Shown here: positions 3,642 through 39,510 of the stretch, in pieces
How positions within the stretch are numbered: position 1 is the stretch's first letter
Layout: each line of letters opens with the position of its first letter
DNA from: an uncultured bacterium
GTDB taxonomy: Bacteria; Patescibacteriota; Minisyncoccia; Phycocordibacterales; DATDWN01
Assembly (NCBI GenBank): GCA_903861205.1
Contig: CAIOTC010000017.1
Span: forward strand, 1-42,525
Reading direction: 5' to 3'
DNA length: 42,525 bases
The notes under the pieces: model-generated
The model's database searches: none
Seen by the model: the letters and a program-made list of their open reading frames with translations, nothing else
What the model was told of the DNA's origin: nothing
Made by a program: the position numbers and the translations under genes

Positions 3642-3892
3642 TTCGAGAACTTCGTTGGTCCTCTAGAAGATGTATGTTTTCAACTTTTGACAATCCTGAA
3701 GAAACCAGAGTATTCTATAAAACTCCTTTCTCCGCTTTCCCAAGGCGGTATCTTAGGGAGGGAAAGACCGGAAATGAACGTTGGTCTTTAATCAAACTAT
3801 CACAAATGCAAAATTTTGCAAATGTTAGTCAGAGAGGGGCATCCTCTCGATTCGGGGTTGAGAAGATGCCCCTCTCTGATATAATTATTATC

Positions 3893-4796: not shown

Positions 4797-7043
4797 ATGA
4801 CAAAACTTTTAATCGTTGAATCTCCGGCAAAAGCAAAAACAATTTCAAAATATTTGGACGGCAAGTACGAGGTGGTCGCCAGTGTCGGACACATTCGTGA
4901 TTTGCCGAAATCAAACAAAATCGCCATCGATATTCCAGGCGGTTTTATTCCGCATTACGAAATTTCCAAAGGCAAAGAAAAAATTGTTTCGGAAATAAGA
5001 TCGCTCGCTAAAAAAGCTGACATTGTCCTGCTAGCCACCGACCCCGACCGCGAAGGCGAGGCAATCGCTTGGCATATCGAACAGCTCATCAGAGGTGATT
5101 TTCCAAATTCCAAAGTCAAAAAAACGGAAACCGACGACAAAATTAAACGTGTCAGCTATCACGAAATCACCAAAGAAGCTATCGAAGAAGCTCTGGAACA
5201 TCCGAGGGAAATCGATCAGAATTTGCGCCAAGCCCAGGAAGCTCGACGCGTTTTGGACAGGCTTGTCGGCTACGATTTATCCGGACTCATCTGGAAAAAA
5301 GTGCGTTACGGACTTTCAGCCGGACGCGTTCAGTCGCCCGCTTTGCGCATCATCATGGAACGCGAGCGCGAAATCCGCGCTTTCAAATCGCACAAGTTCT
5401 GGGTTATTTCCGCCGATGTTATTCCCCAAGGTGACACCTTGGGGGAAAAGTTTACCGTTGTCTGCGAAAAAGAACCGACCATCAAGGGCGAGGTAGAGCA
5501 GATTATTTTGGACGCTGAAAAAGCCGGAAAAGAAAACAGCTGGTACGTCAAAGATGTCAAAGAAACGCAAGTTAAGAAAACTCCGCGACCACCGTTCATC
5601 ACTTCCACGCTCCAGCAGTCGGCCAGCACGCGTCTCGGTTTCGCTCCATCGCGTACAATGGGCATCGCTCAAAAACTTTACGAATCCGGTTACATCACAT
5701 ACATGCGCACAGACTCAACCAACCTCTCTCAGCTCGCGCTCGGCCAAATCGCCGGTGAAATAGAGAAAAGATTTGGTAAAGATTTTTTGCAGTTCAGAAA
5801 ATATGCAGCCAAAAGCAAAAATGCCCAGGAAGCCCACGAAGCAATTCGCCCGACGCACATGTCCGTTGAAAAAGCCGGGCACACCGATGAACAGCAAAAG
5901 TTGTACGAACTTATCTGGCACCGCACACTCGCTTCGCAGATGCGCGACGCCGAAACTTTGCGAACAAAAATCACAGCAAACGTGGCTGGCGACAAAGTTC
6001 CAGATTTTTCCTCTGTCGGTTCGCGTGTCATTTCTCCCGGCTGGCTTTTGGGCGACCCTGCTTCGCGAGGCGAAGATGTGGAATTACCGAAAGTAAAAAC
6101 TGATGAAAATCTTACGCTTGAAAAAGTTAGCACTGAGGAAAAAGAAACGGAACCGCCGACAAGATATTCCGAAGCCGGATTAGTCAAGGAATTGGAAAAA
6201 CGTGGCATCGGCCGACCTTCGACGTACGCTTCGATTATCAAAACGATCGAAGACCGCGGATACGTAGAAAAAATAAACAAAGCTCTTGTGCCGACGGACA
6301 CAGGCGATGTCGTTTCGTCATTTTTGGAAAAAAATTTCGAAAGTTACATCAGCGACGATTTCACTGCCGAGATGGAAGACAAACTCGACCTTATCGCTGA
6401 GGGCAAGGAAGACTACACCAAGATGCTGACAAAGTTTTACAAGCCGTTTTTGGCTGACGTCAAAGCCAAAGATAAATTGGACAAAGTGACAAACCTCGGC
6501 GACGCCGATCCAAAATTCAAATGTCCGATTTGCGGAGGTCCGATGATTATCAAACTTTCGCGTGGCGGGAAATTTTTGTCATGCGCCAAATATCCGGACT
6601 GCGACGGGGCGCTGACCATGGACGGACAGGAAATCAAAAAAGATGAACCGATCGGTGTTGATCCGGAAAGCGGTTTGCCAATTTTTGTCATGATTGGAAA
6701 ATATGGACCTTATGTACAGCTCGGCGAACGAGCCAGTGGCAAAGGTAGCACAAAGGCCGCCAAACCGAGAATGGCTAGTGTGCCAAAAGGCAAGGATTTG
6801 TCGACGATTACTTTGCAGGAAGCGCTAAAATATTTATCGCTGCCGCGCGTCCTCGGCGTCCATCCGGCTACGGGCGAAAAAATTTCCGCCAATGTCGGAA
6901 TGTTTGGACCGTACGTCGTTCACCAAAAAGATTTTCGGTCGCTCAAAGCGCCAGATGATGTTTACACCGTCGAACTCCCCCGCGCTCTGGAAATTTTCGC
7001 TCAAGAGAAGAAAAAACGCGGGTTTGCGAAGAAGAAAAAGTAA
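4797..7043 (+). CDS. topA: DNA topoisomerase I
   Basis: A TOPRIM start (LLIVESPAKAKTISKYL), the active-site region YITYMRTDS and a C-terminal Cys4 zinc ribbon (CPICGG...CAKYPDC) are present. The size is 748 aa. Confidence 0.95.
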   Translation: MTKLLIVESPAKAKTISKYLDGKYEVVASVGHIRDLPKSNKIAIDIPGGFIPHYEISKGKEKIVSEIRSLAKKADIVLLATDPDREGEAIAWHIEQLIRGDFPNSKVKKTETDDKIKRVSYHEITKEAIEEALEHPREIDQNLRQAQEARRVLDRLVGYDLSGLIWKKVRYGLSAGRVQSPALRIIMEREREIRAFKSHKFWVISADVIPQGDTLGEKFTVVCEKEPTIKGEVEQIILDAEKAGKENSWYVKDVKETQVKKTPRPPFITSTLQQSASTRLGFAPSRTMGIAQKLYESGYITYMRTDSTNLSQLALGQIAGEIEKRFGKDFLQFRKYAAKSKNAQEAHEAIRPTHMSVEKAGHTDEQQKLYELIWHRTLASQMRDAETLRTKITANVAGDKVPDFSSVGSRVISPGWLLGDPASRGEDVELPKVKTDENLTLEKVSTEEKETEPPTRYSEAGLVKELEKRGIGRPSTYASIIKTIEDRGYVEKINKALVPTDTGDVVSSFLEKNFESYISDDFTAEMEDKLDLIAEGKEDYTKMLTKFYKPFLADVKAKDKLDKVTNLGDADPKFKCPICGGPMIIKLSRGGKFLSCAKYPDCDGALTMDGQEIKKDEPIGVDPESGLPIFVMIGKYGPYVQLGERASGKGSTKAAKPRMASVPKGKDLSTITLQEALKYLSLPRVLGVHPATGEKISANVGMFGPYVVHQKDFRSLKAPDDVYTVELPRALEIFAQEKKKRGFAKKKK

Positions 7044-7250
7044 AATTGCATTTTCATAGACACGCATAAATCGCTGGTGCGATTTTGCTATGCTCGGAAA
7101 TCAAGAAAACAATCGTCCTCGATACAGAGCCCTTTCGCAAACGGCGTCCTAGGGCGCCGCCCTTGCTGCGCAGGGTCGCTGCTTCGGGCTTCTTTCATCT
7201 TCGTCGTTGTTTTCTAATTTCCTGCGCAAGTCTCTGAAAATGCAATTTTA
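7041..7250. repeat. Long-hairpin intergenic element, possible divergent family L member (copy 2)
   Basis: Perfect 16-nt outer arms taaaattgcattttca / tgaaaatgcaatttta start on the topA stop codon. Inner arms are ggaaatcaagaaaacaa / ttgttttctaatttcc. The junction motif is degenerate. Confidence 0.6.
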
Positions 7251-7300
7251 CTTTTTCAGTGGTAATTTTTCAGAAAATCACTACAATAGAGACGAACCTG

Positions 7301-16167: not shown

Positions 16168-16240
16168 GTACAAAAAGAGTACCAAATTTTTCGATTTGAT
16201 ACAACTTTTGTCATAAAGGTTCGACCTTGATGCCCAGTTC

Positions 16241-18925
16241 CTAAGGTCGAACCTTGGAGGAGGAATCCGACACAAAACTCTCAGTCACAAACGAACCACG
16301 ACGGCCTTTTTTGACAGTAAGGATATACTCCTCGCCTTTCATATCCACTGCAATTTCCCCACCTTTGGAAATTCCCTTGCTGACAATGAGCGAGGCAATC
16401 GGCGTCAGAATTTTATTTTGGATCAATCGTCGAAGCGGGCGAGCGCCATACTGCGGATTGTAACCTTCCTTGGCCAAGTGGTCGTAAACCGCTTGCGTCA
16501 ATTCGAGTGTAATTTCTTTTTGAGCCAATCTGTCTTTCACAATATCGATTTGAATTTTGACAATTTCGGCGATAGCTTCCCTGCTCAAAATGTCAAAGAC
16601 GATGATGTCGTCGAGACGGTTCAGAAATTCCGGTCGGAAGTGATCTTTCAGCGCTTCCATCACTTTTGTTTTGGCATCTTCGTAACCGGCCTTTTCATTT
16701 TTGTCGACGGCGAAACCGATTTTTTGCATTTTGTCGATGTACTGCGAGCCGATGTTCGACGTCAAAATGATAACCGTGTTGCGGAAATTGGCCACGCGGC
16801 CTTTCGCGTCCGTCAATCGTCCGTTGTCGAGAACTTGAAGCAAAATGTTGAAAACTTCCGGATGAGCTTTTTCGATTTCGTCGAAAAGAATAACCGAGTA
16901 TGGGCGATGTCGAACAAGCTCCGTCAAATTTCCACCCTCCTCGTAACCGACATAGCCAGCCGGCGCGCCGATCAGTTTCGAGACGGAATGTTTTTCCATG
17001 TATTCGGACATGTCAATTCTGATGAGTGCTTTGTCATCGTCGAACATGAATTGCGCCAGCGCTTTGGTCAGCTCTGTTTTTCCCACGCCAGTCGGACCGA
17101 GGAAAAGGAACGAACCGATCGGACGATTCGGATCGGCCACCCCAGCACGCGAACGTTTAACCGTGTCGGAAATTTTTATGACAGCTTCTTTTTGGCCGAC
17201 AATGCGCTTTTCCAAAACATCTTCCATGCGTGAAAGTTTATCCGCTTCCTCCTCGAGCATTCGCGAGACTGGAATTCCCGTCCATTTTGAAACAATCGAA
17301 GCGATATCGTTTTCGGTCACTTCCTCCTTCAAAATTCTGCGCGAACTTTGCAATTTTTTCAATTTTTTCGATTTTGAATCCAAATCTTTTTCATAAGCGG
17401 GGATTGTGCCATAGCGAATCTCGGCCGCCTTTGACAAATCCACCCGCCCTTCGGCAACATCGGCTTCCCGACGCGCTTCCTCGAGTTGCTTCTTTAAATT
17501 TTTGATGTCGCTGACCGTTTCCTTTTCATTATTCCACTTCAATTCCAACTCGCCTGTTTTTTCTTTCAAATCGGCAATTTCTTTTTCGATTTCTTTGACA
17601 CGAGACTTGGATTTTGAATCGGTTTCTTTTTTGAGTGCCTCGCGTTCGATTTCAAGCTTAACCACTTTCGAATGCGTCTCCTGCAAAATCGGTGGCATAT
17701 TTTCTAGCGCAATTTTCAGATGCGAAGCCGACTCGTCGATCAGGTCGACCGCTTTGTCCGGCAAAAATCTGTCGGCGATATAACGACTTGAAAGGTTGAC
17801 CGCGGACACAATGGCTTCATCGGTGATGCGCACACCGTGGTAGAGCTCATACTTTTCTTTCAGTCCGCGCATAATGGTGATGGCATCGTCGATCGACGGC
17901 TCGTTGACGTAAACAGGCTGAAAGCGACGAGTCAGCGCCGGATCCTTTTCGATATATTTTTGATATTCCTTGAGTGTTGTCGCGCCAATCGCCCGCAGTT
18001 CTCCGCGCGCCAGTGCCGGTTTGAGCATGTTCGAAGCGTCGAGCGAACCCTCCGCTGCGCCGGCTCCGACAATGGTGTGAATTTCATCGACGAACAAAAT
18101 TATTTTGCCGTCGGAACGTTCGATTTCTTTCAAAATATTTTTCAGACGTTCCTCGAACTCCCCGCGATATTTCGTGCCGGCCACCAAAAGTCCGAGGTCA
18201 AGCGAAACGAGTTCCTTGTCTTTGAGCGATTCCGGCACGTCGTGGGTGGACATGCGGATGGCCAAACCCTCGACGATGGCGGTTTTGCCGACACCAGCCT
18301 CACCGATCAGAATCGGATTATTTTTCGTTCGACGAGAAAGAATCTGAATGATGCGCGAAATTTCACTGTCGCGTCCGATGACCGGATCGAGTTTATTCTG
18401 GTGAGCCAAGTGCGTCAGATTGCGAGTGTACTTGGAAAGCGCTTTAAACTTTTTTGGCGCTTCCTGCTCAACACTTTTCGTGCTCTTTATTTCCCCCAAA
18501 CAACGCAAAACAGTTTCCTTGTCGATTTTGAATTTCATCAAAAGGTCGTGCGCCGGGGAAGGCGTTTCGATGGTGGCGATGAAAAGATGTTCCACTCCGA
18601 CAAACTCGTCGCGCATGTCGGAAGCTACTTTTCCGGAAGCTTCGATGACTTGGGCCAGCTCGGGCGTCAAATAAATCTGATACGAAGCAGAAAGTGTTTG
18701 GCCTGTTTCGGTGCCTTCGATGGTGTCGAGAAGCGAATCGGTCAGAAGTATAGTGTCCACCTCGAGACGATCGAGAATCGACGGGACGATCGATTCTTCC
18801 TGCAAAATAAGCGCGGTCAAAAGGTGGAGCGGGCTGACATGATTTTGACCGCGTTCAATAGCCAGCTCGTGAGCTTTGCGAATGGATTCTTTGGCTTTTG
18901 TTGTAAATTTTCCAAATGGAGGCAT
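16241..18925 (-). CDS. clpB: ATP-dependent chaperone ClpB
   Basis: A Clp N domain, two AAA+ modules ([16 protein letters not shown]) and a long coiled-coil middle domain are present. The size is 894 aa. Confidence 0.95.
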
Positions 18926-19430: not shown

Positions 19431-21443
19431 ATGAATAAGAAAACACTTACGGGACCGATATCAATCAATTCCAAGGGAATTGGTTTTTTTGATTTGCCGG
19501 ACAAAAAAGAGGAATCGCTGGAAATTCAGCCTGAGAATTTGGCGCGGGCTTTTCACGGAGATGTCGTTGAAGTCCAAAAGCTTGGTGGTCCTAAACCGAG
19601 AAAAAGTCTTGGTCGGGCGAGAGAAGTCAAAGAGCAAGCCAAAGTGGTCAGAATAATTTCTCGCGCCAAAACTCAATTCGTCGGCATAATCCAAAAAACA
19701 GACGACAAATCATTTTTGATTCCGGATGATAAAAGAATGTACGTGGATATTTTTATTGACCCAAAATCTTTAGCAAGGACAGTCCTTGCTAAAACTGAAA
19801 ACCAGAAAATTCTTGTAGAAATCACCGACTGGCCGGAAACGGAGAAAAATCCGCGCGGAAAAGTTGTTAAAGTCATCGGTACAGCCGGCGAAAACAACAC
19901 CGAGATGGAATCAATCGTTTTGGAAAAAGGTTTCCGAGTCGACTTCCCTGCCGAAGTTTTGGCCGAGGCGGAAAAAATTAAAAATGAATACAAAAGTCAT
20001 TTTGCCGAGGAAGTGAAAAATCGCCGCGACATGCGCGAAACTTTAACCATGACTATCGATCCTGCCGACGCCAAAGATTTTGACGATGCCATTTCTTTTA
20101 AAGAACTTTCCGACGGAACTTTTGAAATCGGCGTGCATATTGCCGACGTGTCATATTTCGTCACGCCCGGCACAGTGCTTGATCGCGAGGCGGAAAAACG
20201 AGGACTGTCAGTTTATCTCGTCGATCGAACTATTCCGATGTTGCCGGAAGTTTTAAGTAATGACCTTTGTTCTCTCAATCCAAACGAGGACAAGTTCACT
20301 TTTTCGGCCGTTTTCAAAATCGACAAAAATGCCAAGATTTTAGACAAATGGTTTGGCCGAACTGTCATTCACAGCGACAAAAGATTTTCATACGAAGACG
20401 CTCAGAAAGTTTTGGACAATGCGAGCTCACCTGGTGTCAACGGCGAAGCAACGTGGTCACCGGGTGTGGGCGCATTGTCCAAACTAAACAACCTCGCAAA
20501 AATTCTGGAGAAGCAAAAATTTGGCGCAGGCGCAATTAATTTTGAAACAGACGAAGTTAAATTCGTTTTGGACGCGGCCGGCAAACCTCTTTCAGTTTAC
20601 AGAAAAACTCGCCTGGACACGCACAAGCTTGTCGAGGAATATATGCTCCTGGCCAATCGCGCGGTCGCCGAACATATTTTCCATTCTCAAAATAACGAGT
20701 CCTTAGCAAGAACTGTTCTTGCTAAAAAACAAAGTGTTTACAGAATTCACGGCAAACCTGATCCGGAACGCATCGAAGCATTGGCGTTTTTTTTGAAAGC
20801 GCTTGGTTTTGATTTGCGAAACGAAAAAGGTTCTGTCACCTCGCGCGACATCAACAAACTGCTCAAGCAGGTGGAAGGCACACCGAACGAAGAACTGATC
20901 AAAACCGCCACCATTCGCAGTATGGCCAAAGCCGTTTACTCGACCAAAAATATCGGGCACTTCGGTCTGGCTTTCAGATTTTACACGCACTTCACCTCGC
21001 CTATTCGCCGATATCCCGATTTGCTGGTGCACAGATTTTTGGAACGCGAAATCGATGGCGGAAAAATTGCTCCAAATGAATACGAGAAATTTGAAAAGTC
21101 ATGCTTGGCACTCTCCGAACTGGAAAAGAAAGCCAGCGACGCAGAAAGAGCCAGCATCAAATACAAGCAGGTTGAATACATGCAATCGCATGTCGGCGAA
21201 ACTTTCCAAGGCACTATCACCGGCGTAACCGACTGGGGAATTTACATCGAGGAAAAAATTACCAAATGCGAAGGCATGGCAAAACTACGCGACCTGAATG
21301 ACGACTATTATGTCCTCGACGAAAAAAATTACACAATCCGCGGCCAGCGCACCGGCAAAAAATACACACTTGGTGATTCTGTCACATTCAAAGTTGTGGC
21401 GGCAGACATGGAGAAAAGAGTTTTGGATTACCAGATTTTGTAA
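19431..21443 (+). CDS. rnr: Ribonuclease R (RNB family 3'-5' exoribonuclease)
   Basis: The RNB core (TIDPADAKDFDDAIS, VYLVDRTIPMLP, FTSPIRRYPDLLVHR) and a C-terminal S1 domain are present. The size is 670 aa. Confidence 0.9.
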   Translation: MNKKTLTGPISINSKGIGFFDLPDKKEESLEIQPENLARAFHGDVVEVQKLGGPKPRKSLGRAREVKEQAKVVRIISRAKTQFVGIIQKTDDKSFLIPDDKRMYVDIFIDPKSLARTVLAKTENQKILVEITDWPETEKNPRGKVVKVIGTAGENNTEMESIVLEKGFRVDFPAEVLAEAEKIKNEYKSHFAEEVKNRRDMRETLTMTIDPADAKDFDDAISFKELSDGTFEIGVHIADVSYFVTPGTVLDREAEKRGLSVYLVDRTIPMLPEVLSNDLCSLNPNEDKFTFSAVFKIDKNAKILDKWFGRTVIHSDKRFSYEDAQKVLDNASSPGVNGEATWSPGVGALSKLNNLAKILEKQKFGAGAINFETDEVKFVLDAAGKPLSVYRKTRLDTHKLVEEYMLLANRAVAEHIFHSQNNESLARTVLAKKQSVYRIHGKPDPERIEALAFFLKALGFDLRNEKGSVTSRDINKLLKQVEGTPNEELIKTATIRSMAKAVYSTKNIGHFGLAFRFYTHFTSPIRRYPDLLVHRFLEREIDGGKIAPNEYEKFEKSCLALSELEKKASDAERASIKYKQVEYMQSHVGETFQGTITGVTDWGIYIEEKITKCEGMAKLRDLNDDYYVLDEKNYTIRGQRTGKKYTLGDSVTFKVVAADMEKRVLDYQIL

Positions 21444-21467: not shown

Positions 21468-21508
21468 AATCCTCCGGCTTCGCCACCTCCTTTAAGAAAG
21501 GAGGAATT
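21468..21508 (+). repeat. 42-nt two-hairpin unit (family U), forward orientation
   Basis: The unit reads aatcctcc-ggcttcgcc-a-cctccttt-aag-aaaggagg-aatt. Confidence 0.8.
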
Positions 21509-21516
21509 GATGCATT

Positions 21517-21946
21517 AATCTCCCTTTTTTAAAGGGAGTGGCCGAAGGCCGAGGGATTTTTAGTGCATTCCACAATTTTTCTTACACAACTCTCTAAATT
21601 AGTTTTTATATCAATATCTCTGAATCTAATTATTTTGACTCCAGCATTCTTTAAAATCTCATCTCTCACCTCATCATTTTCTATTTTTGCATCATGACTA
21701 ATGCCGTCAATTTCAATTGCAAGATTTAATTTTGAACAATAAAAATCAACTATGTAGTTGTTGATAGGTCTCTGTCTCAAAAATTGGCAACCTAATTTTT
21801 TATCTTTTATTTCTTTCCATAGCAATACTTCAGATAATGTTGATTCGTTCCGTAACTTTTTGGAAAATTTTTTTAGATTTTTATTGTAAATGAGTTTCAT
21901 AAAATCCCTCCCCGCTTCGCGGTACTCCCTTTAAGAAAGGGAGATT
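21517..21946 (-). mobile_element. Candidate compact element: a DUF559 endonuclease gene bounded by inverted family-U units (21517-21558 and 21903-21946)
   Basis: The left end is aatctcccttttttaaagggagtggccgaaggccgagggatt. The reverse complement of the right end is aatctccctttcttaaagggagtaccgcgaagcggggagggatt. The unit pair at 29077-29172 shows the same two-end arrangement with only 12 nt between the ends. Confidence 0.5.
21529..21900 (-). CDS. DUF559 / Vsr-like (PD-(D/E)xK) endonuclease domain protein
   Basis: LLWKEIKDKKLGCQFLRQRPINNYIVDFYCSKLNLAIEIDGISHD...IIRF is the DUF559 pattern. The last 9 codons (NPSAFGHSL*) are encoded by the flanking repeat unit. Confidence 0.8.
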   Translation of the reverse strand: MKLIYNKNLKKFSKKLRNESTLSEVLLWKEIKDKKLGCQFLRQRPINNYIVDFYCSKLNLAIEIDGISHDAKIENDEVRDEILKNAGVKIIRFRDIDIKTNLESCVRKIVECTKNPSAFGHSL

Positions 21947-21956
21947 TGAATGCGGG

Positions 21957-24254
21957 TTATTTCGCCACGGCAACGGCTTGATCAAATGCGACCGAGAGAA
22001 GTTTCGAGCCACCACCGAGACCCATGGTTACGCCGTACAAAATCCCCGCACGGGACATTGTTTCGCGGTTGTGGGTAATGACAATGAGTTGCGAACGTTT
22101 GGAAAGATTTTCCACCATATCGCCATACTTTTTGGAATTGGCTTCGTCGAGAGCGGCGTCTGTTTCGTCTAGAATAATAAACGGCGGAGGATTGACTTGA
22201 GAGATGGCAAAAAGCAAAGCGATGGAAGTCAGTGCCCTCTCCCCGCCGGAAAGCATCATCAAACCTTTCACTTTCTTTTTCGGTAACACAACATCGATAT
22301 CAATCCCATCCTCACTTTCCGCTCCGGTTTCTTCAATGGCAAGGGCAGCCCTTGCCATTTCATCACCGTCTTCATTTTCAAATAGGTCATCAATTTCTTT
22401 TTTCTTGCGTTTTGGCGCGGAAATAACGGACAAGCTGGCCTCACCACCACCGAACATCAGAGCAAAATATTCTTTGAACTGCTGGTTGATTTTTTCCACG
22501 CCGGTTTTGAATTCGTTGGAAAGTCGTTCATCCAAATCTTTTATGAGATCTGTCAGCGAATCGGCCGAACCGGAAAGGTCAGTCAGCTCTTTTGCCAGAA
22601 ACTCATCTCGCTCCGAGGCATCAGTGTATTCTTTCATTACATCGGCCCCACCGATTCCGCCGGCATCTTCCAAACGAATTTTTATTTTTTCGATTGTTCG
22701 TCTGCGTTCTTCCTGATTTGCGCGTGGTTCGTCAAAATCAAAAACAAGCGACTCAAATTGCAAAACAGCCGTGCCAAGCATCATTCCAAGCTCTGTTAAT
22801 TCCCTATTGAAATCCTCTTTGACTATTCGCAAAGTTTCCTCCTCCGACTGCAAGCTGTGAATTTGCGATCTGACTTCCTGCTCCTCCGCCATGATTCTGA
22901 AAACCGCTTTTTCGGCGTCGCGATTGGTATCTTTTTCCGTGTTTATTTTTTCCTGTAAAGCCGAATACTCGCGGGACAATTTCGCTTCGTTTGCAATAAC
23001 ATCACCCGCTTCACTGGCAGCAATTTCCTTTTTTCTCCTCAAATCCGCCAAATCTTTTTGGGCTTCAACCAAAAGCGACGTATCCACCTTGTCTTTATTA
23101 CTTTCAATAAAATCTGACAAAAGTTTTCCAATTTCATCAATTTTCCTTATCAAAATATCCACTTTCTCCTGGTCCCAGGTGTCACCTGGGACCAGTTTTT
23201 TGGAATCGGAAATTATTTGTTCTATTTCTTTTTGAACAACTTCGACAGAAACAAGCGTGACTGTTTTGTGCAAATATGAGTTGGCCAGTTCCTCCTGCTT
23301 TTTTATCATTCGGGCCAAGGAGGTTATCTCACCGTCCAGTTCGCCGGACTGACGTAAAAGCTCGTCTTTCTTTTTTCGCGTTTCGTGAAGTTCCCTCTCG
23401 AGTGAAATCAGTTCGTCCGACATGACATCGCGATGTTGTGCGCCTTCCAAAATTTTCTTGGCTTCGGAGAGTTCCTCTTGCAACTTTTTTTCCTGTTTTT
23501 CCAGCGGATGTTTTTTGCCGGAAATATTTTTCTCAATGCGCTTTATATATTCGTCCTCGCGTTTGCAATACTCCAGCGCTTTATCCTGCAAATCTTTTTT
23601 CATTTCAAGCGTCTTCTCCACTTTTTCCACCTGCTTTTTGAGGAATTTGATATGCGGCAAAATTTCTCGTCGAAGAGATTCCACTTGTGCAATATTTTCA
23701 CGAGTTTTCAAAAGTTTTTTCTCACTTTCCTGTTTTTTGTATTGATAAAGTTTCAAACCGAGCGCATCCTCAATCATGGCTTTGCGTTCTTTGATGCTGG
23801 CATTCAAAATTCTGTCCGCTTCGCCCTGCGAAATAATGTGATGTCCGGACGAACCGATATGCGCCGAATGCAAAAGTTCCAACACATCTCGCAAACAAAC
23901 TTGCGAACCGTTGATGGAATACTCGTTGACACCGTCGCGATGCACAACACGTTCAATGATCACCTCCTCGAAATCCACAGGTAGAAATTTGGATTTGTTG
24001 TCGAAAATTATTTTGACGCTTGCCCGATTCGCTCTAGGCAAATCCCCCGCGCCGTTAAAAATCAAATCTTCGCCTTTTTTGCCACGCAGGGATTTGATCG
24101 ACTGCTCGCCAAGAACAAAAGAAAACGCCTCGGCCACATTGGACTTGCCCGAACCATTCGGCCCAACCACCGCAGTAACATTCGAAGTGAAAAGTAATTC
24201 GCTCTTTTTGGCGAAACTTTTGAATCCGGTGAGTTCAATAGATTTCAGATACAT
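21957..24254 (-). CDS. smc: SMC-family chromosome segregation ATPase, short form (765 aa)
   Basis: The Walker A head (VVGPNGSGKSN), long coiled coil, signature motif LSGGERALT and Walker B FIILDETDAALD are present. I could not recognise a canonical hinge. Confidence 0.8.
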   Translation of the reverse strand: MYLKSIELTGFKSFAKKSELLFTSNVTAVVGPNGSGKSNVAEAFSFVLGEQSIKSLRGKKGEDLIFNGAGDLPRANRASVKIIFDNKSKFLPVDFEEVIIERVVHRDGVNEYSINGSQVCLRDVLELLHSAHIGSSGHHIISQGEADRILNASIKERKAMIEDALGLKLYQYKKQESEKKLLKTRENIAQVESLRREILPHIKFLKKQVEKVEKTLEMKKDLQDKALEYCKREDEYIKRIEKNISGKKHPLEKQEKKLQEELSEAKKILEGAQHRDVMSDELISLERELHETRKKKDELLRQSGELDGEITSLARMIKKQEELANSYLHKTVTLVSVEVVQKEIEQIISDSKKLVPGDTWDQEKVDILIRKIDEIGKLLSDFIESNKDKVDTSLLVEAQKDLADLRRKKEIAASEAGDVIANEAKLSREYSALQEKINTEKDTNRDAEKAVFRIMAEEQEVRSQIHSLQSEEETLRIVKEDFNRELTELGMMLGTAVLQFESLVFDFDEPRANQEERRRTIEKIKIRLEDAGGIGGADVMKEYTDASERDEFLAKELTDLSGSADSLTDLIKDLDERLSNEFKTGVEKINQQFKEYFALMFGGGEASLSVISAPKRKKKEIDDLFENEDGDEMARAALAIEETGAESEDGIDIDVVLPKKKVKGLMMLSGGERALTSIALLFAISQVNPPPFIILDETDAALDEANSKKYGDMVENLSKRSQLIVITHNRETMSRAGILYGVTMGLGGGSKLLSVAFDQAVAVAK

Positions 24255-25629: not shown

Positions 25630-25828
25630 AAAAATAATTAGCAGAATTTCGTCGATGTCGTTTCGTTTTCGGAGCATCCACAGCCCGCGAGCATGGTTTT
25701 GTCAACGACCCCGCCTTCGGGGTGGGGCTCATTGACAAATCGCGGGCGAGGACAGAGAAAATTTTTCGCCGGAAAATTTTCGTCTCCGAAAAGGAAACAA
25801 CTCGTAAGAAATTCTGCTAATTATTTTT
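25630..25828. repeat. Family L element copy 5 (long form)
   Basis: Perfect 21-nt outer arms aaaaataattagcagaatttc / gaaattctgctaattattttt overlap the nusB stop codon. The core shares ccttttcggagacgaaa, ttctctgtcctcg, gatttgtcaatgagcccc, ggggtcgttgacaaaaccatgctcg and ggatgctccgaaaa with 37952-38184. Confidence 0.85.
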
Positions 25829-26779: not shown

Positions 26780-26892
26780 CAATTTCCAATGATCAATTTT
26801 CAATTTTCAATGAATTTTACAATGAACCAATCGTCCAATTGAAGAATTGATTCATTTATTGGAAATTGAAAATTGTTACTTGAAAATTTCCT
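26780..26892. repeat. Family W hairpin copy 2 (between the nusB start and the rpmF stop)
   Basis: The arms are caattttcaattttcaatgaat / attcatttattggaaattgaaaattg. The centre is caatgaaccaatcgtccaattgaagaattg. Confidence 0.75.
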
Positions 26893-28355: not shown

Positions 28356-29048
28356 TCAAACCAGGTTTTTGCAAAAAGATTTGCGATGAAAAAGGGAGAG
28401 ACCGTGAGTTTGAATGGCAGTGCGATGCGCGAGCGTGCCATAACCTTTGTGAATATGAAAATTGTAAAGCGGATATTTTTTGCTCGCTTTGCACATTAGT
28501 TTGTCACGCGAAACTTTTGCCAAAATCGACGCCCAGGCGATAATTTTTTCTTTTTCGTCGCCTTTTATAATAGTAAATTGTTTTACTTGTTTAACAGAAT
28601 ATCCGTTTGTAAGTTCAGCTGGAACTTTTAATCCCCCATCTAATAAAATTTTTAATTTAAAATTTTTAATTTTTAAATAATTTTTAATGTCTAAATTTCC
28701 AAAACCTTTTGCAATGGCTTTTTTGATGCATTTGGAAATTCCGATTTTGTCGATTTCTTTGTTTGAGATATGAACAATTTGAGCTTGCAGAAGGGCACCT
28801 TCTGCAGAATTCGTGCAGAAGGTGCCCTTCTGCAACTGTTCCAAGACTTTTGCATACTTCTCGCGAGATTCCGGAGAAAGTTTTTTGCTGTCTTTGCCGA
28901 GTGGTGGCAAACGCCCCGCCACACCGGCGGGCAAGTTGTTTCGCTTCAGTTTGGCGTACAATTTTTCCTCACACATCACAATCCCCACCGTCACAGGCCC
29001 TGCCAATGGTCCCCTCCCAACTTCGTCAATGCCGATAATGTAGTTCAT
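28356..29048 (-). CDS. rnhB: Ribonuclease HII. Start moved to MNYIIGIDEVGRGPLAGPV.
   Basis: GIDEVGRGPLAGPV, DSKKLS and ASILAKVSRD are RNase HII motifs. The gene carries a 51-nt double hairpin and an AT-rich in-frame block. Confidence 0.9.
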   Translation of the reverse strand: MNYIIGIDEVGRGPLAGPVTVGIVMCEEKLYAKLKRNNLPAGVAGRLPPLGKDSKKLSPESREKYAKVLEQLQKGTFCTNSAEGALLQAQIVHISNKEIDKIGISKCIKKAIAKGFGNLDIKNYLKIKNFKLKILLDGGLKVPAELTNGYSVKQVKQFTIIKGDEKEKIIAWASILAKVSRDKLMCKASKKYPLYNFHIHKGYGTLAHRTAIQTHGLSLFHRKSFCKNLV

Positions 29049-29076
29049 AAAAATAGAGTTTACGCATTTGTGCACC

Positions 29077-29172
29077 ATTCTCCCTTTCATAAAGGGAGTG
29101 GCCGAAGGCCGAGGGATTTTTTGATTTCAAAATCCTCCGCCCTGCGGGCACCTCCTTTAAGAAAGGAGGATT
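29077..29172. repeat. Gene-less pair of family-U units (reverse then forward orientation, 12-nt spacer)
   Basis: The sequence is attctccctttcataaagggagtggccgaaggccgagggatt - ttttgatttcaa - aatcctccgccctgcgggcacctcctttaagaaaggaggatt. Confidence 0.8.
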
Positions 29173-29248
29173 AATGCGTGAGCTATTAAAGAATATCTTA
29201 TCACAAAAATAAAAGCCCCGGCGTTTCCGCGCGGGACTGTACAACTTT

Positions 29249-29750: not shown

Positions 29751-32700
29751 ATGTCAAAGTTTATCCACTTACATACTCACAGTCATTACAGCTTGCTCAA
29801 TGCCCTGCCGAAACTCGACGAGCTGGTCAAGACTGCCAAGAAGATGGGAATGGCTTCGCTGGCTTTGACCGACAACGGCAATCTGTACGGCGCCATTGAG
29901 TTTTACAAGGAATGCCAGAAACACGAGGTCAAGCCGATCATTGGCGTCGACGCTTATGTCGCCTACCGTTCGCGAAATGACAAACAAGCCGGCATCGACA
30001 AGGAACGCTATCGACTAGTCCTACTGGCCGAAAACGAAACCGGTTACAAAAATTTGATCCAACTCGTCACCATTTCCCACCTGGAAGGTTTTTATTACAA
30101 ACCGCGTGTGGACAAAGAAATTTTGGAAAAATATCACGAGGGACTGATCGCTATCGCACCGTCATTTTCGAACGACATTTCACAATCGCTGGAAACGATG
30201 CATGTGGAGCAGGCGATGGAGCGACTGGAGTGGTACAAGAAAGTCTTTAACAAAAAATCCAACAAGGGGGACCCTTGTGGTTCAGGATTACAAGGGTCCC
30301 CCTTGTTGGACCAAAGTCAGACCTCGGGGAACTTCTTCATTGAAATCACCCACCATCCTGAAATAAAAGGTCACGAGGAAAAAATGAAAAAACTTTTGGA
30401 CTTCGCTAGGCAAACGAACACACCGATTGTGGCGGCGCATGATGTCTATTATATGAATCCCGAGGACCGAGCCGCTCGCGAGACACTCATGGCTGTCATG
30501 AACAACGGCGACATATCCGACAAGTTGGACGAAAAAACGGACGACTTTTCATTCATTTCGCCGGAAACTGCCGAAAAATATTTCAAAAATTTGCCTGACG
30601 CGCTTGAAAACACCGAAAAAATCGCCGAGAGATGCAACTTGAAACTCGAACTGGGCAAATGGGTTTTCCCGAATTACATTTTGGATAGCGGACTTTCATA
30701 TGACGAGGAACTTCGCAAGGAAGCGCTGGCCGGTTTCGAAAAACGCGGGCTTTCGCAAACAGCCGAGGAAATGGAGCGCATGGAGTATGAATTGAAAGTG
30801 ATCAAGGACAAAGGTTACTCGCCATACTTTTTGGTGGTGGCGGACCTGCTTCGCTTTTCGGAAGAAAATGGAATTTTCACAAACATCAGAGGTTCGGTGG
30901 CCGGCTCTCTCGTCACCTACCTGACCGGCGTCACCAAAGTCAATCCACTGGTTTACAAAATTCCGTTTGAAAGATTTCTCAACCCAGAGCGTCCGTCGGC
31001 GCCCGACATCGACATGGACTACGCCGACAACCGTCGCGACGAGGTGATTGATTACGCTCGTCGAAAATACGGCGTGAACAACGTTGCCCAAATCGGTACG
31101 TTCGGTACGATGGCCGCCCGCGGATCCGTGCGCGACGTCACTCGCGCCATGGGTTTTGCCTACTCGCTCGGAGACTCGATTGCCAAACTGATTCCGATGG
31201 GCGCGCAGGGATTTCCCATGACCATCGACCGCGCTCTCAAAGAAGTGCCGGAGTTGAAAGAATTGTACAAAACTCAGGCCGATGTCAAAAAAATAATCGA
31301 CATGGCCAAAAAAATCGAGGGTTGTGCCCGCCACATCTCGGTGCACGCTGCCGGCGTAGTTATTTCGCCCACAACGCTGACCGATTTCGTTCCGCTTCAG
31401 TACGATACCAAAGGCGACAACAAAATCATCACACAGTACGACATGCACGCCGTCGAGGACGCCGGGCTTTTGAAGTTTGACTTTCTCGGCATCAGAAACC
31501 TTTCCATTTTGGCCGACGCCGTTCATCGCGTCGAAGCGATTGAAGGCAAAAAAATCGACATCGAACAAATTCCGCTCGACGACAAAAAAACTTTCGACAT
31601 GCTCACTCGTGGAGAAACGATCGGACTTTTCCAGCTCAACGGCGACGGTATGACGAGATGGTTGAAAGAACTCAAACCGACAACCATTTTCGATATCAAC
31701 GCCATGGTCGCTTTGTACCGACCCGGCCCGATGGAGTGCATTCCGCAATACATCGAGCGCAAACATGATCCGAAAAAAATAAAATTTCTTGATCCGCGAA
31801 TGAAAACGATTTTGGATCAATCATTCGGCGTCATCACTTACCAGGACGACGTGCTCATGTGCGCCATCAAACTCGGCGGATATTCCTGGCTCGAAGCCGA
31901 CAAACTGCGTAAAGCCATGGGCAAGAAAATTCCGGCTGTTATGCAGGCCGAGAAAGAAAAACTTCTGGCCGGACTTTTGAAAAATGGAATGTCGCCAGAA
32001 AAAGCGGACGAGCTGTGGAAGTTGATTGAGCCGTTTGCCGCCTACGGTTTCGGCAAAGCGCACGCCGCCAGCTATGGACGCGTGGCTTACCAAACTTCGT
32101 ACATGAAAGCCAACTTCCCTGCTATATATATGTCAGCCGTTCTGACTGCCGAGTCGGGCGACGTGGAAAAAGTGGCCGAAATCATTGGAGAGTGCAAGCG
32201 TATGAAAATTCCCGTTTTACCACCGGATATAAATCAGTCGTTCGGCGGGTTCAGTGTGGTGAAAGGCAAAAAAAGGGTGCCCCTTTTAAATCCTGACGAA
32301 AAGGGGCACCCTTTTTCTGATTCCGAATCAGACAAAATCAGATTTGGATTGACCACCATTAAAAATTTCGGTGAGGGAATCGGCGCGTCGATTATTGCCG
32401 AAAGAAAAGCGAACGGCGAATTCAAATCGCTTTCCGATTTTCTGCGCCGGATCAAAGATAAAAACTTGAACAAAAAATCGCTCGAGTCGCTCATCAAAGC
32501 CGGCGCGATGGATCGGTTCGGCGAACGCGCCACGCTTCTTTACAACTTGGAAACGTTGCTCGCCTTCAACAAAGAAGAACGAGCCAAGGAAACGGACCAG
32601 ACTTCCCTTTTCGGACTTTTGTCGGAGCCGGAAAAAGCGAGCGAAATTCATTTGGAAAAAGCACCGGTTTCAAATCCGGCCGATGCTTTGTTGTGGGAAA

Positions 32701-33060: not shown

Positions 33061-33219
33061 GCAAATCTCAATTTCGCATTCCTTTCCAGAGTAACCTCAA
33101 AAACTCCTGCGAGTTTTTGAGGCTGATCCTCGGCCAAAACTTGTCAAGATGGAATGCCTTGACAAGACCATGCTTTTGGCCTGCGGAGCCTCCGGAAAGG
33201 AATGCAAAATGAGATTTGC
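33061..33219. repeat. Family L element copy 6
   Basis: The outer arms are gcaaatctcaatttcgcattcctttccagag / ctccggaaaggaatgcaaaatgagatttgc. The core has tcctcggcc...cttgtcaag...cttgacaag...catgcttttggcctgcggagcctcc, parallel to copies 5 and 8. TAGTGGTGA follows. Confidence 0.8.
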
Positions 33220-33783: not shown

Positions 33784-34032
33784 ATGGTAAATGCGGAGGT
33801 TGTTAGGACCGGAAATGAAAACAACGTAAACCTCATCAGAAGGTTCACCAAACGCGTCCAGGGATCGGGCGTTTTGCCTCGTGTCCGAAGCATCCGCTAC
33901 TCGTCTCGCAAGCAATCCGAGTACGTTAAAAAGAAAAAAACTCTCAAAGTTTTGAAACGCCGCGAAGAAGTCAACGAGCTCATCAAAATGGGAAAAATGG
34001 TGGAGAATACCAGGGGACCGAAGAAAAAATAA
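33784..34032 (+). CDS. rpsU: 30S ribosomal protein S21. The start is uncertain between 33775 and 33784.
   Basis: MVNAEVVRTGNENNVNLIRRFTKRVQGSGVLPRVRSIRYSSRKQSEYVKKKK fits the S21 pattern (ALRRFKR...G.l.e.R.R..Y.kPSe.rk). Confidence 0.8.
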   Translation: MVNAEVVRTGNENNVNLIRRFTKRVQGSGVLPRVRSIRYSSRKQSEYVKKKKTLKVLKRREEVNELIKMGKMVENTRGPKKK

Positions 34033-34136
34033 TTTTTCAAGTATCAATTTCCAATTTCCAATGAATTTCTCAATGAACCAATTGTCCAATTGAAGAATTG
34101 GAAAATTCATTGGAAATTGGAAATTGGAAATTTTTA
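34033..34136. repeat. Family W hairpin copy 3 (between rpsU and ybeY)
   Basis: The arms are caatttccaatttccaatgaattt / aaattcattggaaattggaaattgg. The centre is ctcaatgaaccaattgtccaattgaagaattgg. Confidence 0.8.
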
Positions 34137-34142
34137 GTAACT

Positions 34143-34523
34143 ATGAACAACATTTTCTCCATAACCAACACTACGCGAGGCGAAGTTCCTGGTGTTGATT
34201 TTTTGCCTATTAAGGACTCTGTACTGGGTAAAAAATACGAACTTTCACTGGTTTTTGTCGGCGATAAAAAATCACAAACGCTCAACAACAAATATCGAAA
34301 ATTTAACAAACCGACAAATTGTCTCAGTTTCTCGCTCGGCAAAAATTCCGGAGAAATTTTCATCAATTTGGGCAAGGCAAAAAAAGAAGCGCCGAGCTTT
34401 GGCATGAAATTCGAAAAGTTCATAATTTACTTGTTTATTCACAGTTGCTTGCATTTGAAAGGAATGGATCATGGGAGTATAATGGAGAAAGCAGAAGAAA
34501 AAATGCTAAAAATTTTCAAGTAA
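34143..34523 (+). CDS. ybeY: rRNA maturation endoribonuclease YbeY. Start moved to MNNIFS.
   Basis: TNCLSFSL and the metal-binding motif HSCLHLKGMDH are present. The size is 126 aa. Confidence 0.85.
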   Translation: MNNIFSITNTTRGEVPGVDFLPIKDSVLGKKYELSLVFVGDKKSQTLNNKYRKFNKPTNCLSFSLGKNSGEIFINLGKAKKEAPSFGMKFEKFIIYLFIHSCLHLKGMDHGSIMEKAEEKMLKIFK

Positions 34524-34620
34524 CAATTTCCAATTTCCAATAAATGAATCAATTTTTCAATTGAACAATTGGTTCATTGGAAAATTCATTGAAAATTGGA
34601 AATTGGTCATTGAAAATTTC
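34512..34620. repeat. Family W hairpin copy 4 (between ybeY and ftsA; approximately the reverse complement of copy 2)
   Basis: The sequence is aaattttcaagtaacaatttccaatttccaataaatgaatc...gattcattgaaaattggaaattggtcattgaaaattt. Its centre is the reverse complement of the copy 2 and 3 centres. Confidence 0.8.
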
Positions 34621-37951: not shown

Positions 37952-38184
37952 AAAAATTTCTTAAAACATTACCTTTTCGGAGACGAAAGCCCGTCCAGCG
38001 ACGGGCTTTCTCTGTCCTCGGCCTCGATTTGTCAATGAGCCCCTCTCCAGTTTTAAGGTCTGGCCTTGGGAAATTGGCTGTTTAAGGCCAGACCTTTGGA
38101 ATCCAAAACTGGGGAGGGGTCGTTGACAAAACCATGCTCGAGGCCTGCGGATGCTCCGAAAAGGTAATGTTTTAAGAAATTTTT
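37952..38184. repeat. Family L element copy 8 (long form) carrying a nested double hairpin at its apex (38047-38112)
   Basis: Perfect 24-nt outer arms are aaaaatttcttaaaacattacctt / aaggtaatgttttaagaaattttt. The core is collinear with the reverse complement of copy 5. TAGTGGTGA follows. Confidence 0.85.
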
Positions 38185-39426: not shown

Positions 39427-39510
39427 ATCCTCCGCCCTGCGGGCACCTCCTTTAGGAAAGGAGGATTAAATCTCCCTTTTTTAAAGGGAGTGGCCGAAGG
39501 CCGAGGGATT
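39426..39510. repeat. Gene-less pair of family-U units (forward then reverse, directly abutting)
   Basis: The sequence is aatcctccgccctgcgggcacctcctttaggaaaggaggatt-a-aatctcccttttttaaagggagtggccgaaggccgagggatt. It starts on the trxB stop codon. Confidence 0.8.

Follow-up and report, generated by a model that had tools for sequence, protein, structure and literature searches.

Why does the RNase HII gene (rnhB) of an uncultured bacterium carry, in frame, a 51-nt stretch of DNA in which each arm of a palindrome is itself a hairpin? The gene lies in a stretch of 42.5 kb (42,525 nt; hereafter the window). The original prediction, made from the letters alone, saw in the element a doublet resembling a REPIN, a pair of inverted repetitive extragenic palindromic (REP) sequences that form one hairpin (defined in PMC3337134). 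We estimate a probability of about 85% that the rnhB element is a REPIN of two inverted 21-nt REPs, that it belongs to a system of REPs and REP-associated tyrosine transposases (RAYTs) widespread in Patescibacteria (the candidate phyla radiation, CPR), and that it sits in frame in a permissive linker of RNase HII. The REP is dispersed, the rnhB copy is an insertion, and the lineage is rich in equivalent in-frame insertions. Its RNase HII homologues and related loci assign the window to Patescibacteria, of Parcubacteria/Paceibacterota type.

The rnhB element and the transposase genes bracketed by its repeat

The open reading frame (ORF) of rnhB extends from 28356 to 29090 on the minus strand (244 aa) and encodes RNase HII (Pfam PF01351, E 5e-28; relatives were also found in PDB). 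Orthologues begin at the MNYIIG.. codon at 29048, which delimits the gene to 28356-29048. The element occupies 28785-28835 on the minus strand and contributes 17 codons, which encode LQKGTFCTNSAEGALLQ. A first REP unit, TGCAGAAGG-GCA-CCTTCTGCA (28786-28806), is separated by the 7-nt spacer GAATTCG (28807-28813) from a second, TGCAGAAGG-TGC-CCTTCTGCA (28814-28834), whose loop is the reverse complement of that of the first. A pattern check upheld the architecture originally described: the arms TTGCAGAAGGGCACCTTCTGCA (28785-28806) and TGCAGAAGGTGCCCTTCTGCAA (28814-28835) are 100% complementary across 22 nt with GAATTCG between them, and each is a perfect hairpin with a 9-bp stem and a 3-nt loop. 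The REP unit has no match in 100 dinucleotide-preserving shuffles of the window. On both strands, the minimum free energy fold of single-stranded DNA (ssDNA) is a predicted 22-bp hairpin of -28.1 kcal/mol (z = -10.2 and -8.9), a value reached by none of 200 shuffles. The REP is also open in all six frames, being free of stop codons in each.

The same 21-mer brackets an ORF of ∼230 aa at two other loci, L201 and L177. A doublet or a single copy lies directly 5′ of the start codon, a single copy with the opposite loop orientation lies directly 3′ of the stop codon, and one more is in frame within the ORF (L201 441-461; L177 267-287). The product is an IS200-like Y1/HUH transposase (PF01797, Y1_Tnp; E 1e-11 and 3e-10, with 45.2 and 40.5 bits against a cut-off of 23), and its best NCBIfam match is REP_Tyr_transpos, “REP-associated tyrosine transposase.” The gene of its closest relative, on a 590-kb contig (L202; CAZMIU010000001.1), is also flanked by TGCAGAAGG-GCA and TGCAGAAGG-TGC. 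Because the same 21-mer flanks RAYT-like genes, the hairpin unit can be taken as a genuine REP, and the proposed likeness to a REPIN gains from both these flanks and the doublets in other ORFs. Judged by sequence, the bracketing of an HUH/Y1 gene in three independent contigs of Patescibacteria type is the arrangement that defines REP–RAYT systems (PMC3337134).

The genome collection has at least 590 stretches that encode relatives of the transposase; almost all of the 80 best come from Patescibacteria. In 27 of these 80, perfect hairpins with the same stem (6-14 bp) lie on either side of the gene, which is true of none of 280 displaced control intervals; the flanking hairpin has its own sequence in each genome. 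Of the 27 REP-flanked genes, 9 (strict criteria) also contain the cognate REP in frame within the RAYT ORF, and in at least four genes it lies 7-11 residues past the catalytic YIHLNP motif. Such internal copies are located at L202 3500-3520, L227 3473-3493, L253 3169-3183 and 3480-3494, L259 3452-3470, L267 3490-3504, and L281 3490-3506; they could serve autoregulation or be plain self-insertions. Across a family alignment of 24 sequences, the HUH (YCLMPNHFHLL) and tyrosine (YIHLNP) motifs are invariant. Searched against solved structures, the family profile matched only 4ER8, E. coli TnpA_REP (E 4.5e-5), whereas a PDB search with a single RAYT sequence reached 4ER8 at no better than E 0.4. 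Some relatives (39-43% identity; L223, L240, and L241) come from contigs whose bins are labeled archaeal, either DPANN or other (Nanoarchaeia, Bathyarchaeia), which could reflect shared mobile elements or mis-binning.

The repeat is dispersed in other genomes. In a scan of 185,579 species-representative genomes, the doublet TGCAGANGG..N1-15..TGCAGANGG was found only in GCA_039740895.1, the source of the rnhB orthologue L044. In this genome a variant doublet, TGCAGATGG, is present on three contigs, in three unrelated ORFs, and is in frame in all three; two are inverted pairs, one is a direct pair (L166), and one half-stem is of the window type. A generic scan (AAGGGNNNCCCTT, 1-30 nt, AAGGGNNNCCCTT) identified at least 119 loci, about half labeled as Patescibacteria groups, with the proviso that taxon labels are unreliable for several third-party annotation (TPA) bins. 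The loops are mutually reverse complementary in 93 of the 134 matches listed, against 1 in 64 expected by chance. A few genomes from outside the CPR (Amycolatopsis xylanica and a gammaproteobacterial metagenome-assembled genome) have classic multi-copy REP/REPIN families of the same architecture.

In metagenomes, a scan for TGCAGAAGGNNNCCTTCTGCA found 38 matches at 35 loci. In 13 of the 38, on ∼11 contigs, the loop is GCA or TGC, giving the exact 21-mer of the window, where 2 in 64 are expected by chance. Many of these exact matches are doublets inside ORFs, including those of an MnmA-like protein, MiaA, a 288-aa protein (L184), and others. The MiaA of L170 has a net gain of 6 aa relative to that of the window, in an ambiguous alignment that we do not use as presence/absence evidence. 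The stem pattern of the 21-mer also falls inside conserved protein motifs, as in L176 13729-13749, L182 2841-2861, and L188 1681-1701, where the proteins concerned are a cysteine desulfurase (..AEGALLHTDASQ) and a 405-434-aa ORF (..DAEG[AV]LLHIKD). Some matches may therefore be native coding sequence and not REPs. Viral contigs yielded one match and no sign of phage carriage.

The insertion site in relatives and the origin of the element

The alignment comprised RNase HII of the window and 27 orthologues with 60-69% identity to it. The indel site that takes up the 17 residues is hypervariable and is bounded by a helix (..EKYAKVLEQ) and the strand IVHISNK. This site is empty in four orthologues (P0003, P0009, P0041, and P0060), and others have unrelated or longer inserts. 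The element had been proposed to lengthen RNase HII, and the window protein is indeed 17 aa longer here than the four; relatives without the palindrome do not keep the same length. In an AlphaFold2 model (predicted local distance difference test, pLDDT, 82.5; predicted template modeling score, pTM, 0.84), residues 72-88 begin at the C-terminal end of helix 59-74, cross the loop of lowest confidence (78-81 below 50), and enter strand 87-94. As modeled, the insertion point appears to be a surface helix-to-strand linker that is tolerant of insertions.

The DNA at this site was compared with that of three orthologues (L044, L042, and L043) and of L001, from a species-representative genome. In each of the four, this rnhB site is occupied by a nested palindrome that is perfect but has a different stem. 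The unit is TCTGCAGATGG-TCC-CCATCTGCAGA in L044 (perfect arm of 26 nt), AAAAGGG-TTC-CCCTTTT in L042 (20 nt), ACAAGGG-CGC-CCCTTGT in L043 (22 nt), and TGTCAAAG-ACTGC-CTTTGACA in L001. Stems of the window and L044 are one position apart (A>T), a change compensated in all four half-stems, and the encoded peptide is entirely different between lineages. Five perfect yet different palindromes may result from repeated insertion at the only permissive site, from insertion beside or replacement of a resident REP, or from local homogenization.

Recurrence of palindromes at one site raises the possibility that selection maintains it for the host. The hairpin, in mRNA or DNA, could modulate rnhB expression or replication, or the peptide could form a new interaction surface of RNase HII, with the REP origin secondary (exaptation). 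Consistent with this, at least five lineages (window, L044, L042, L043, and L001) have a perfect nested palindrome in the loop, the A>T change is compensated in four half-stems, and the predicted fold of the mRNA is very stable (-43.5 kcal/mol). However, occupancy is patchy among equally distant orthologues, of which four are empty and others have unrelated or longer inserts. Each lineage's sequence fits its own genome-wide REP type instead of a locus-specific consensus, the peptide is not conserved, the modeled loop is of low confidence, and equivalent inserts are present in many unrelated proteins. We consider a selected host function improbable. Most likely, the element is without function for RNase HII and is tolerated selfish DNA translated as a 17-aa loop.

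Equivalent inserts are evident in dnaE. A REPIN of a second REP group, ACAAGGG-GGA-CCCTTGT with an 11-nt spacer, is in frame at 30258-30310 (plus strand) and is absent from the DnaE orthologues of L042 and L044. Another, AAAAGGG-TGC-CCCTTTT, also with an 11-nt spacer and in frame, is at 32267-32319 (plus strand) and represents an exact gain of 48 nt, or 16 aa, relative to L042. Both have 45-nt cores and are clean insertions when compared with DnaE of L042 (84% identical) and L044 (82% identical). Their spacers have TCAGGATT in common, in opposite orientation, and their stems are those present in rnhB of L043 and L042. At the site of the second copy, dnaE of L044 has TGCAGAAG-agatc-CTTCTGCA. 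Scans for palindromes whose arms are hairpins themselves found further copies in the window and none in shuffles. Perfect hairpins (stem of at least 7 bp, loop of 3-5 nt) number 44 in the window, against an average of 9.7 and no more than 14 in 20 shuffles. The original prediction treated the doublet as a feature of rnhB, and this requires correction: it is not confined to that gene but is one of a large population of in-frame hairpin insertions in the window.

Palindromes can also be born in place, if template-switching during replication or fold-back synthesis perfects a local sequence with no involvement of a mobile element. The arms are always perfectly Watson–Crick paired, with no G:T pairs, the loops are complementary between arms but different between copies, and some rnhB copies (L043 and L044) are perfect palindromes with a 1-nt centre, all of which suit such an origin. 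We nevertheless reject it as very unlikely because identical 21-mers, including the loop, are at many unrelated loci and contigs and beside a transposase gene. The sequence common to the two dnaE spacers also argues against an origin in place, as does the doublet of L166, which is direct and not inverted; fold-back synthesis makes no direct pair.

A different miniature transposon would make the resemblance to RAYT-associated REPs coincidental. One candidate is an element similar to the Rickettsia palindromic elements (RPEs), reportedly described by Ogata et al. in 2000 as in-frame selfish DNA in housekeeping genes. Like RPEs, the elements of the window are in-frame palindromic DNA in the housekeeping genes of a small genome, specify an extra surface peptide, and are present or absent among orthologues; that no RAYT is seen in the window would also fit. 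Unlike RPE-1, which is ∼100-150 nt and belongs to Rickettsia-specific families with no identified transposase, they measure 45-53 nt, are made up of hairpin units of 17-21 nt, and are associated with a RAYT-type transposase whose gene has matching flanks. By size and sequence, the resemblance is functional, not familial. The other candidate is a MITE (a miniature transposable element with inverted repeats) of a DDE transposase. MITEs are 70-300 bp, with terminal inverted repeats of 15-30 bp and a target-site duplication. The elements here are shorter, have no terminal inverted repeats apart from the hairpins, and show no consistent target-site duplication between filled and empty sites. Moreover, RAYT genes are bracketed by exactly this hairpin unit, and absence of a transposase from the window applies to transposases of any type. 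We therefore hold another kind of transposon to be most improbable.

An artefact of assembly, amplification, or cloning is hardly credible: chimeras of multiple displacement amplification (MDA) can yield palindromes and the overlapping PstI and EcoRI sites of the rnhB palindrome (CTGCAGAATTC) are linker-like, but the palindrome is in frame and stop-free in an otherwise intact gene, four independent assemblies, made in different projects, show the same architecture at that site, and the 21-mer recurs in independent metagenomes with differing spacers.

Comparison with known REP–RAYT systems

REP–RAYT systems are said to have been characterized by Nunvar in 2010 and by Ton-Hoang in 2012. The elements reported here share with the REPIN–RAYT systems of Pseudomonas fluorescens SBW25 and E. 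coli (Bertels and Rainey 2011) two inverted REPs of ∼20 nt, a variable spacer, and one long hairpin, which is predicted in our case. In both, only the bases at the centre of a palindrome reveal its orientation, a genome has several REP groups, and an HUH/Y1 gene is bracketed by the same REP (here in L201, L177, and L202); 4ER8 is the sole significant relative among solved structures. The differences are that stems are perfect, the hosts are Patescibacteria, the RAYT often has its own REP inside the ORF, and spacers, which vary in length and sequence among copies at other loci, are 5-11 nt as compared with 34-110 nt in SBW25 (PMC3116915, PMC3337134).

In the IS200/IS605 family (IS608, ISDra2), sub-terminal hairpins are recognized by an HUH/Y1 transposase, and many of the CPR RAYT-like genes have flanking hairpins of one orientation, as at the two ends of IS200. 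In contrast, the CPR profile misses the TnpA proteins of IS608 and ISDra2 in PDB at E <= 0.01, and the dispersed units are bare hairpins or doublets and not copies of a transposase gene.

REPs within genes have a precedent. Di Nocera, De Gregorio and Rocco (2013; PMC3733652) described single REPs and dimers wholly inside ORFs of known proteins. More than half were dimers or grouped repeats of ∼20-30 aa, and many were in replication and repair genes (PMC3733652). The hosts here are similar, namely rnhB, dnaE (twice), dprA, topA, smc, and the RNase R gene. Their REPs, however, have GTAG or CGTC tags and are from Opitutus, Rickettsia, Thioalkalivibrio, and others, not from the CPR, and intragenic copies are a minority in those genomes but the majority in this window. 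What is already known, therefore, is that REP dimers occur inside replication and repair genes, with RPEs as an analogous case. New are the phylum, the short untagged type of REP, and the frequency of in-frame insertion, including inside the RAYT gene. We found no paper on REPINs or RAYTs in Patescibacteria; one preprint has a K07491 match in a DPANN archaeon.

Several observations weigh against assignment of the rnhB element to a REP–RAYT system. REPINs are defined as extragenic, whereas the rnhB copy is intragenic and in frame. The window has no RAYT gene and no transposase of any type, and the genome's own RAYT is unseen because only 42.5 kb is available. The CPR RAYT family scores 57.9 bits against REP_Tyr_transpos, under the curated cut-off of 80, and 18 of the 27 CPR RAYT genes have the same loop orientation on both flanks, which is more IS200-like than classical for RAYTs. 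The GTAG/CGTC tag of classical REPs is absent from the flanks of the copies in the window, L177, L201, and L202. Comparison of filled with empty dnaE sites, and of the sequences around the three GCA_039740895.1 copies, also revealed no consistent target-site duplication or target motif; a candidate 5-nt repeat (GAAGT) is seen at the L166 copy only. The search for further doublets that the original prediction suggested had a divided outcome. The compensated variant at three loci of one related genome was found, but the window has a single copy of the rnhB REP group even when up to three mismatches are allowed. In addition, perfect symmetry at one site in five lineages could indicate local homogenization instead of repeated insertion.

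By analogy with E. coli TnpA_REP and IS200/IS605 TnpA, the RAYT would recognize the folded hairpin in ssDNA, such as the lagging-strand template, and would cut and rejoin beside it, so that the doublet moves in single-stranded form. Most insertions into a gene-dense genome would land in coding sequence, and selection would retain only those copies that are a multiple of three in length, free of stops, and in tolerant surface loops.

More tentatively, and in our view rather less probable than not, REP–RAYT systems of the CPR may have adapted to coding sequence. Short, perfectly paired REPs that are open in six frames would routinely colonize surface loops of essential proteins and the RAYT gene, the latter at a recurrent spot after YIHLNP, and, over long times, permissive sites such as the rnhB loop would receive new insertions or be converted to whichever REP type is current in the lineage. 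If this is true, REPINs would rank among the major origins of protein indels in these reduced genomes, one that has not been described so far, and the RAYT-internal REP might serve autoregulation.

REPINs and RAYTs are usually seen as extragenic and mainly proteobacterial, and here they are in the CPR, whose genomes have little intergenic space. As in-frame, coding inserts, the elements persist in essential replication and repair genes (those for RNase HII, DNA polymerase III alpha, SMC, RNase R, and Dus), and REP insertion would help to explain why CPR housekeeping proteins vary so puzzlingly in length. Annotators and phylogeneticists are cautioned that such loops are probably selfish DNA and not lineage-specific functional motifs, and the inserts offer fine-scale strain markers. 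The RAYT of L201 or L202, paired with a defined 21-nt substrate, provides a tractable case of how a REP–RAYT system copes with a nearly all-coding genome.

Other hairpins and palindromes of the window

The window is crowded with housekeeping genes (dus, serS, dprA, topA, relA/spoT, parB, murB, murA, miaA, a mur ligase, clpB, rnr, smc, rnc, nusB, rnhB, dnaE, ftsA, ftsZ, and trxB) and also encodes three tRNAs, which are the only matches to Rfam in the window at the gathering threshold. Most of its REP-like copies are intragenic. On the minus strand, dus has two nested palindromes. One is degenerate (SPRGESLGTPRSLLGE, 802-850) and corresponds to ∼17 aa extra relative to Dus of T. maritima (1VHN). 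The second, AAGGG-GAA-CCCTT ... AAGGG-TTC-CCCTT (401-459), gives a net gain of 5 aa relative to 1VHN in an ambiguous alignment. An imperfect nested palindrome, GAGAGG-GGCAT-CCTCTC, is in the N-terminal region of dprA (3829-3879, plus strand), and AAGGT-TCG-ACCTT ... AAGGT-CGA-ACCTT overlaps the 3′ end of clpB (16216-16255). The loops GCA, GGA, and GAA of the window had suggested GNA triloops that are extra stable in ssDNA, an idea dropped in view of the loops of all kinds in the wider set.

Solo hairpins have stems of 9-12 bp across the whole set, and most are in-frame insertions that are absent from the orthologues of L044 (72-74% identical). In RNase R, a REP-like hairpin with an 11-bp stem encodes SLARTVLAK (19769-19793, plus strand), and a second copy (20703-20725, plus strand), again SLARTVLAK, is a 7-aa insertion relative to L044. 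In smc, a hairpin of 27 nt with a 12-bp stem (23169-23195, minus strand) is an 8-aa insertion relative to L044. Additional intragenic solo hairpins are in smc (22335-22359) and topA (5424-5444), and rnr has an imperfect palindrome with 32-nt arms (20411-20483).

Within rnhB, the original prediction noted a second, GC-rich hairpin. It exists, but as CCCGCC-acacc-GGCGGG (28915-28931, minus strand), with a stem of 6 bp (28915-28920 with 28926-28931) and a 5-nt loop; the pairing of eight with eight bases first written is not complementary, being in the wrong register. By pattern and orthologue alignment, the hairpin coincides with an 8-aa lineage-specific insert, LPAGVAGR, common to P0003 only (there SPAVNAGN), and may be a decayed solo REP. 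Codons NYLKIKNFKLKI at 28630-28680 of rnhB, together with the N.LKI.N..LKI segment of several orthologues, look like a degenerate in-frame copy of an AT-rich repeat. AT-rich palindromic repeats of CAATTTCCAATTT and AATTGGAAATTG units are intergenic at 26781-26888, 34031-34133, and 34510-34619.

Two further kinds of repeat are outside genes. An extragenic module of two hairpins, CACCTCCTTTaagAAAGGAGG and TCTCCCTTTnnnAAAGGGAGTGGCCGAAGGCC, resembling Shine–Dalgarno (SD) and anti-SD sequences, is at 29070-29180, 21470-21550, 21910-21960, and 39435-39500, with one copy directly upstream of rnhB. It may represent a further group of REPs or a signal for translation or termination. Intergenic imperfect palindromes of ∼140-230 nt with ends ..TTTTCGGAG / CTCCGAAAA.. 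are at 37952-38184, 25630-25828, and 33071-33210, and also at 1293-1462 and 7034-7257; two copies have cores that are 94% identical and in opposite orientation. At the apex of one of these larger inverted repeats is the nested palindrome AAGG-TCTGG-CCTT ... AAGG-CCAGA-CCTT (38055-38096). The long palindromes have no Rfam match at the gathering threshold and could be MITE-like elements or structured RNAs.

Beyond the window, Paceibacterota SMAG_U3062 has many AAGGGGTCCCCTT hairpin pairs whose spacers contain TTATCCACA or TGTGGATAA and are DnaA-box-like. They are at 1915-1958 and 6896-6946 of L065; 3694-3737, 4377-4416, and 4404-4447 of L105; 1639-1689, 2350-2398, 4201-4249, and 4237-4275 of L113; and 2136-2188 of L157. 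These pairs may be an origin-region repeat or another REP family.

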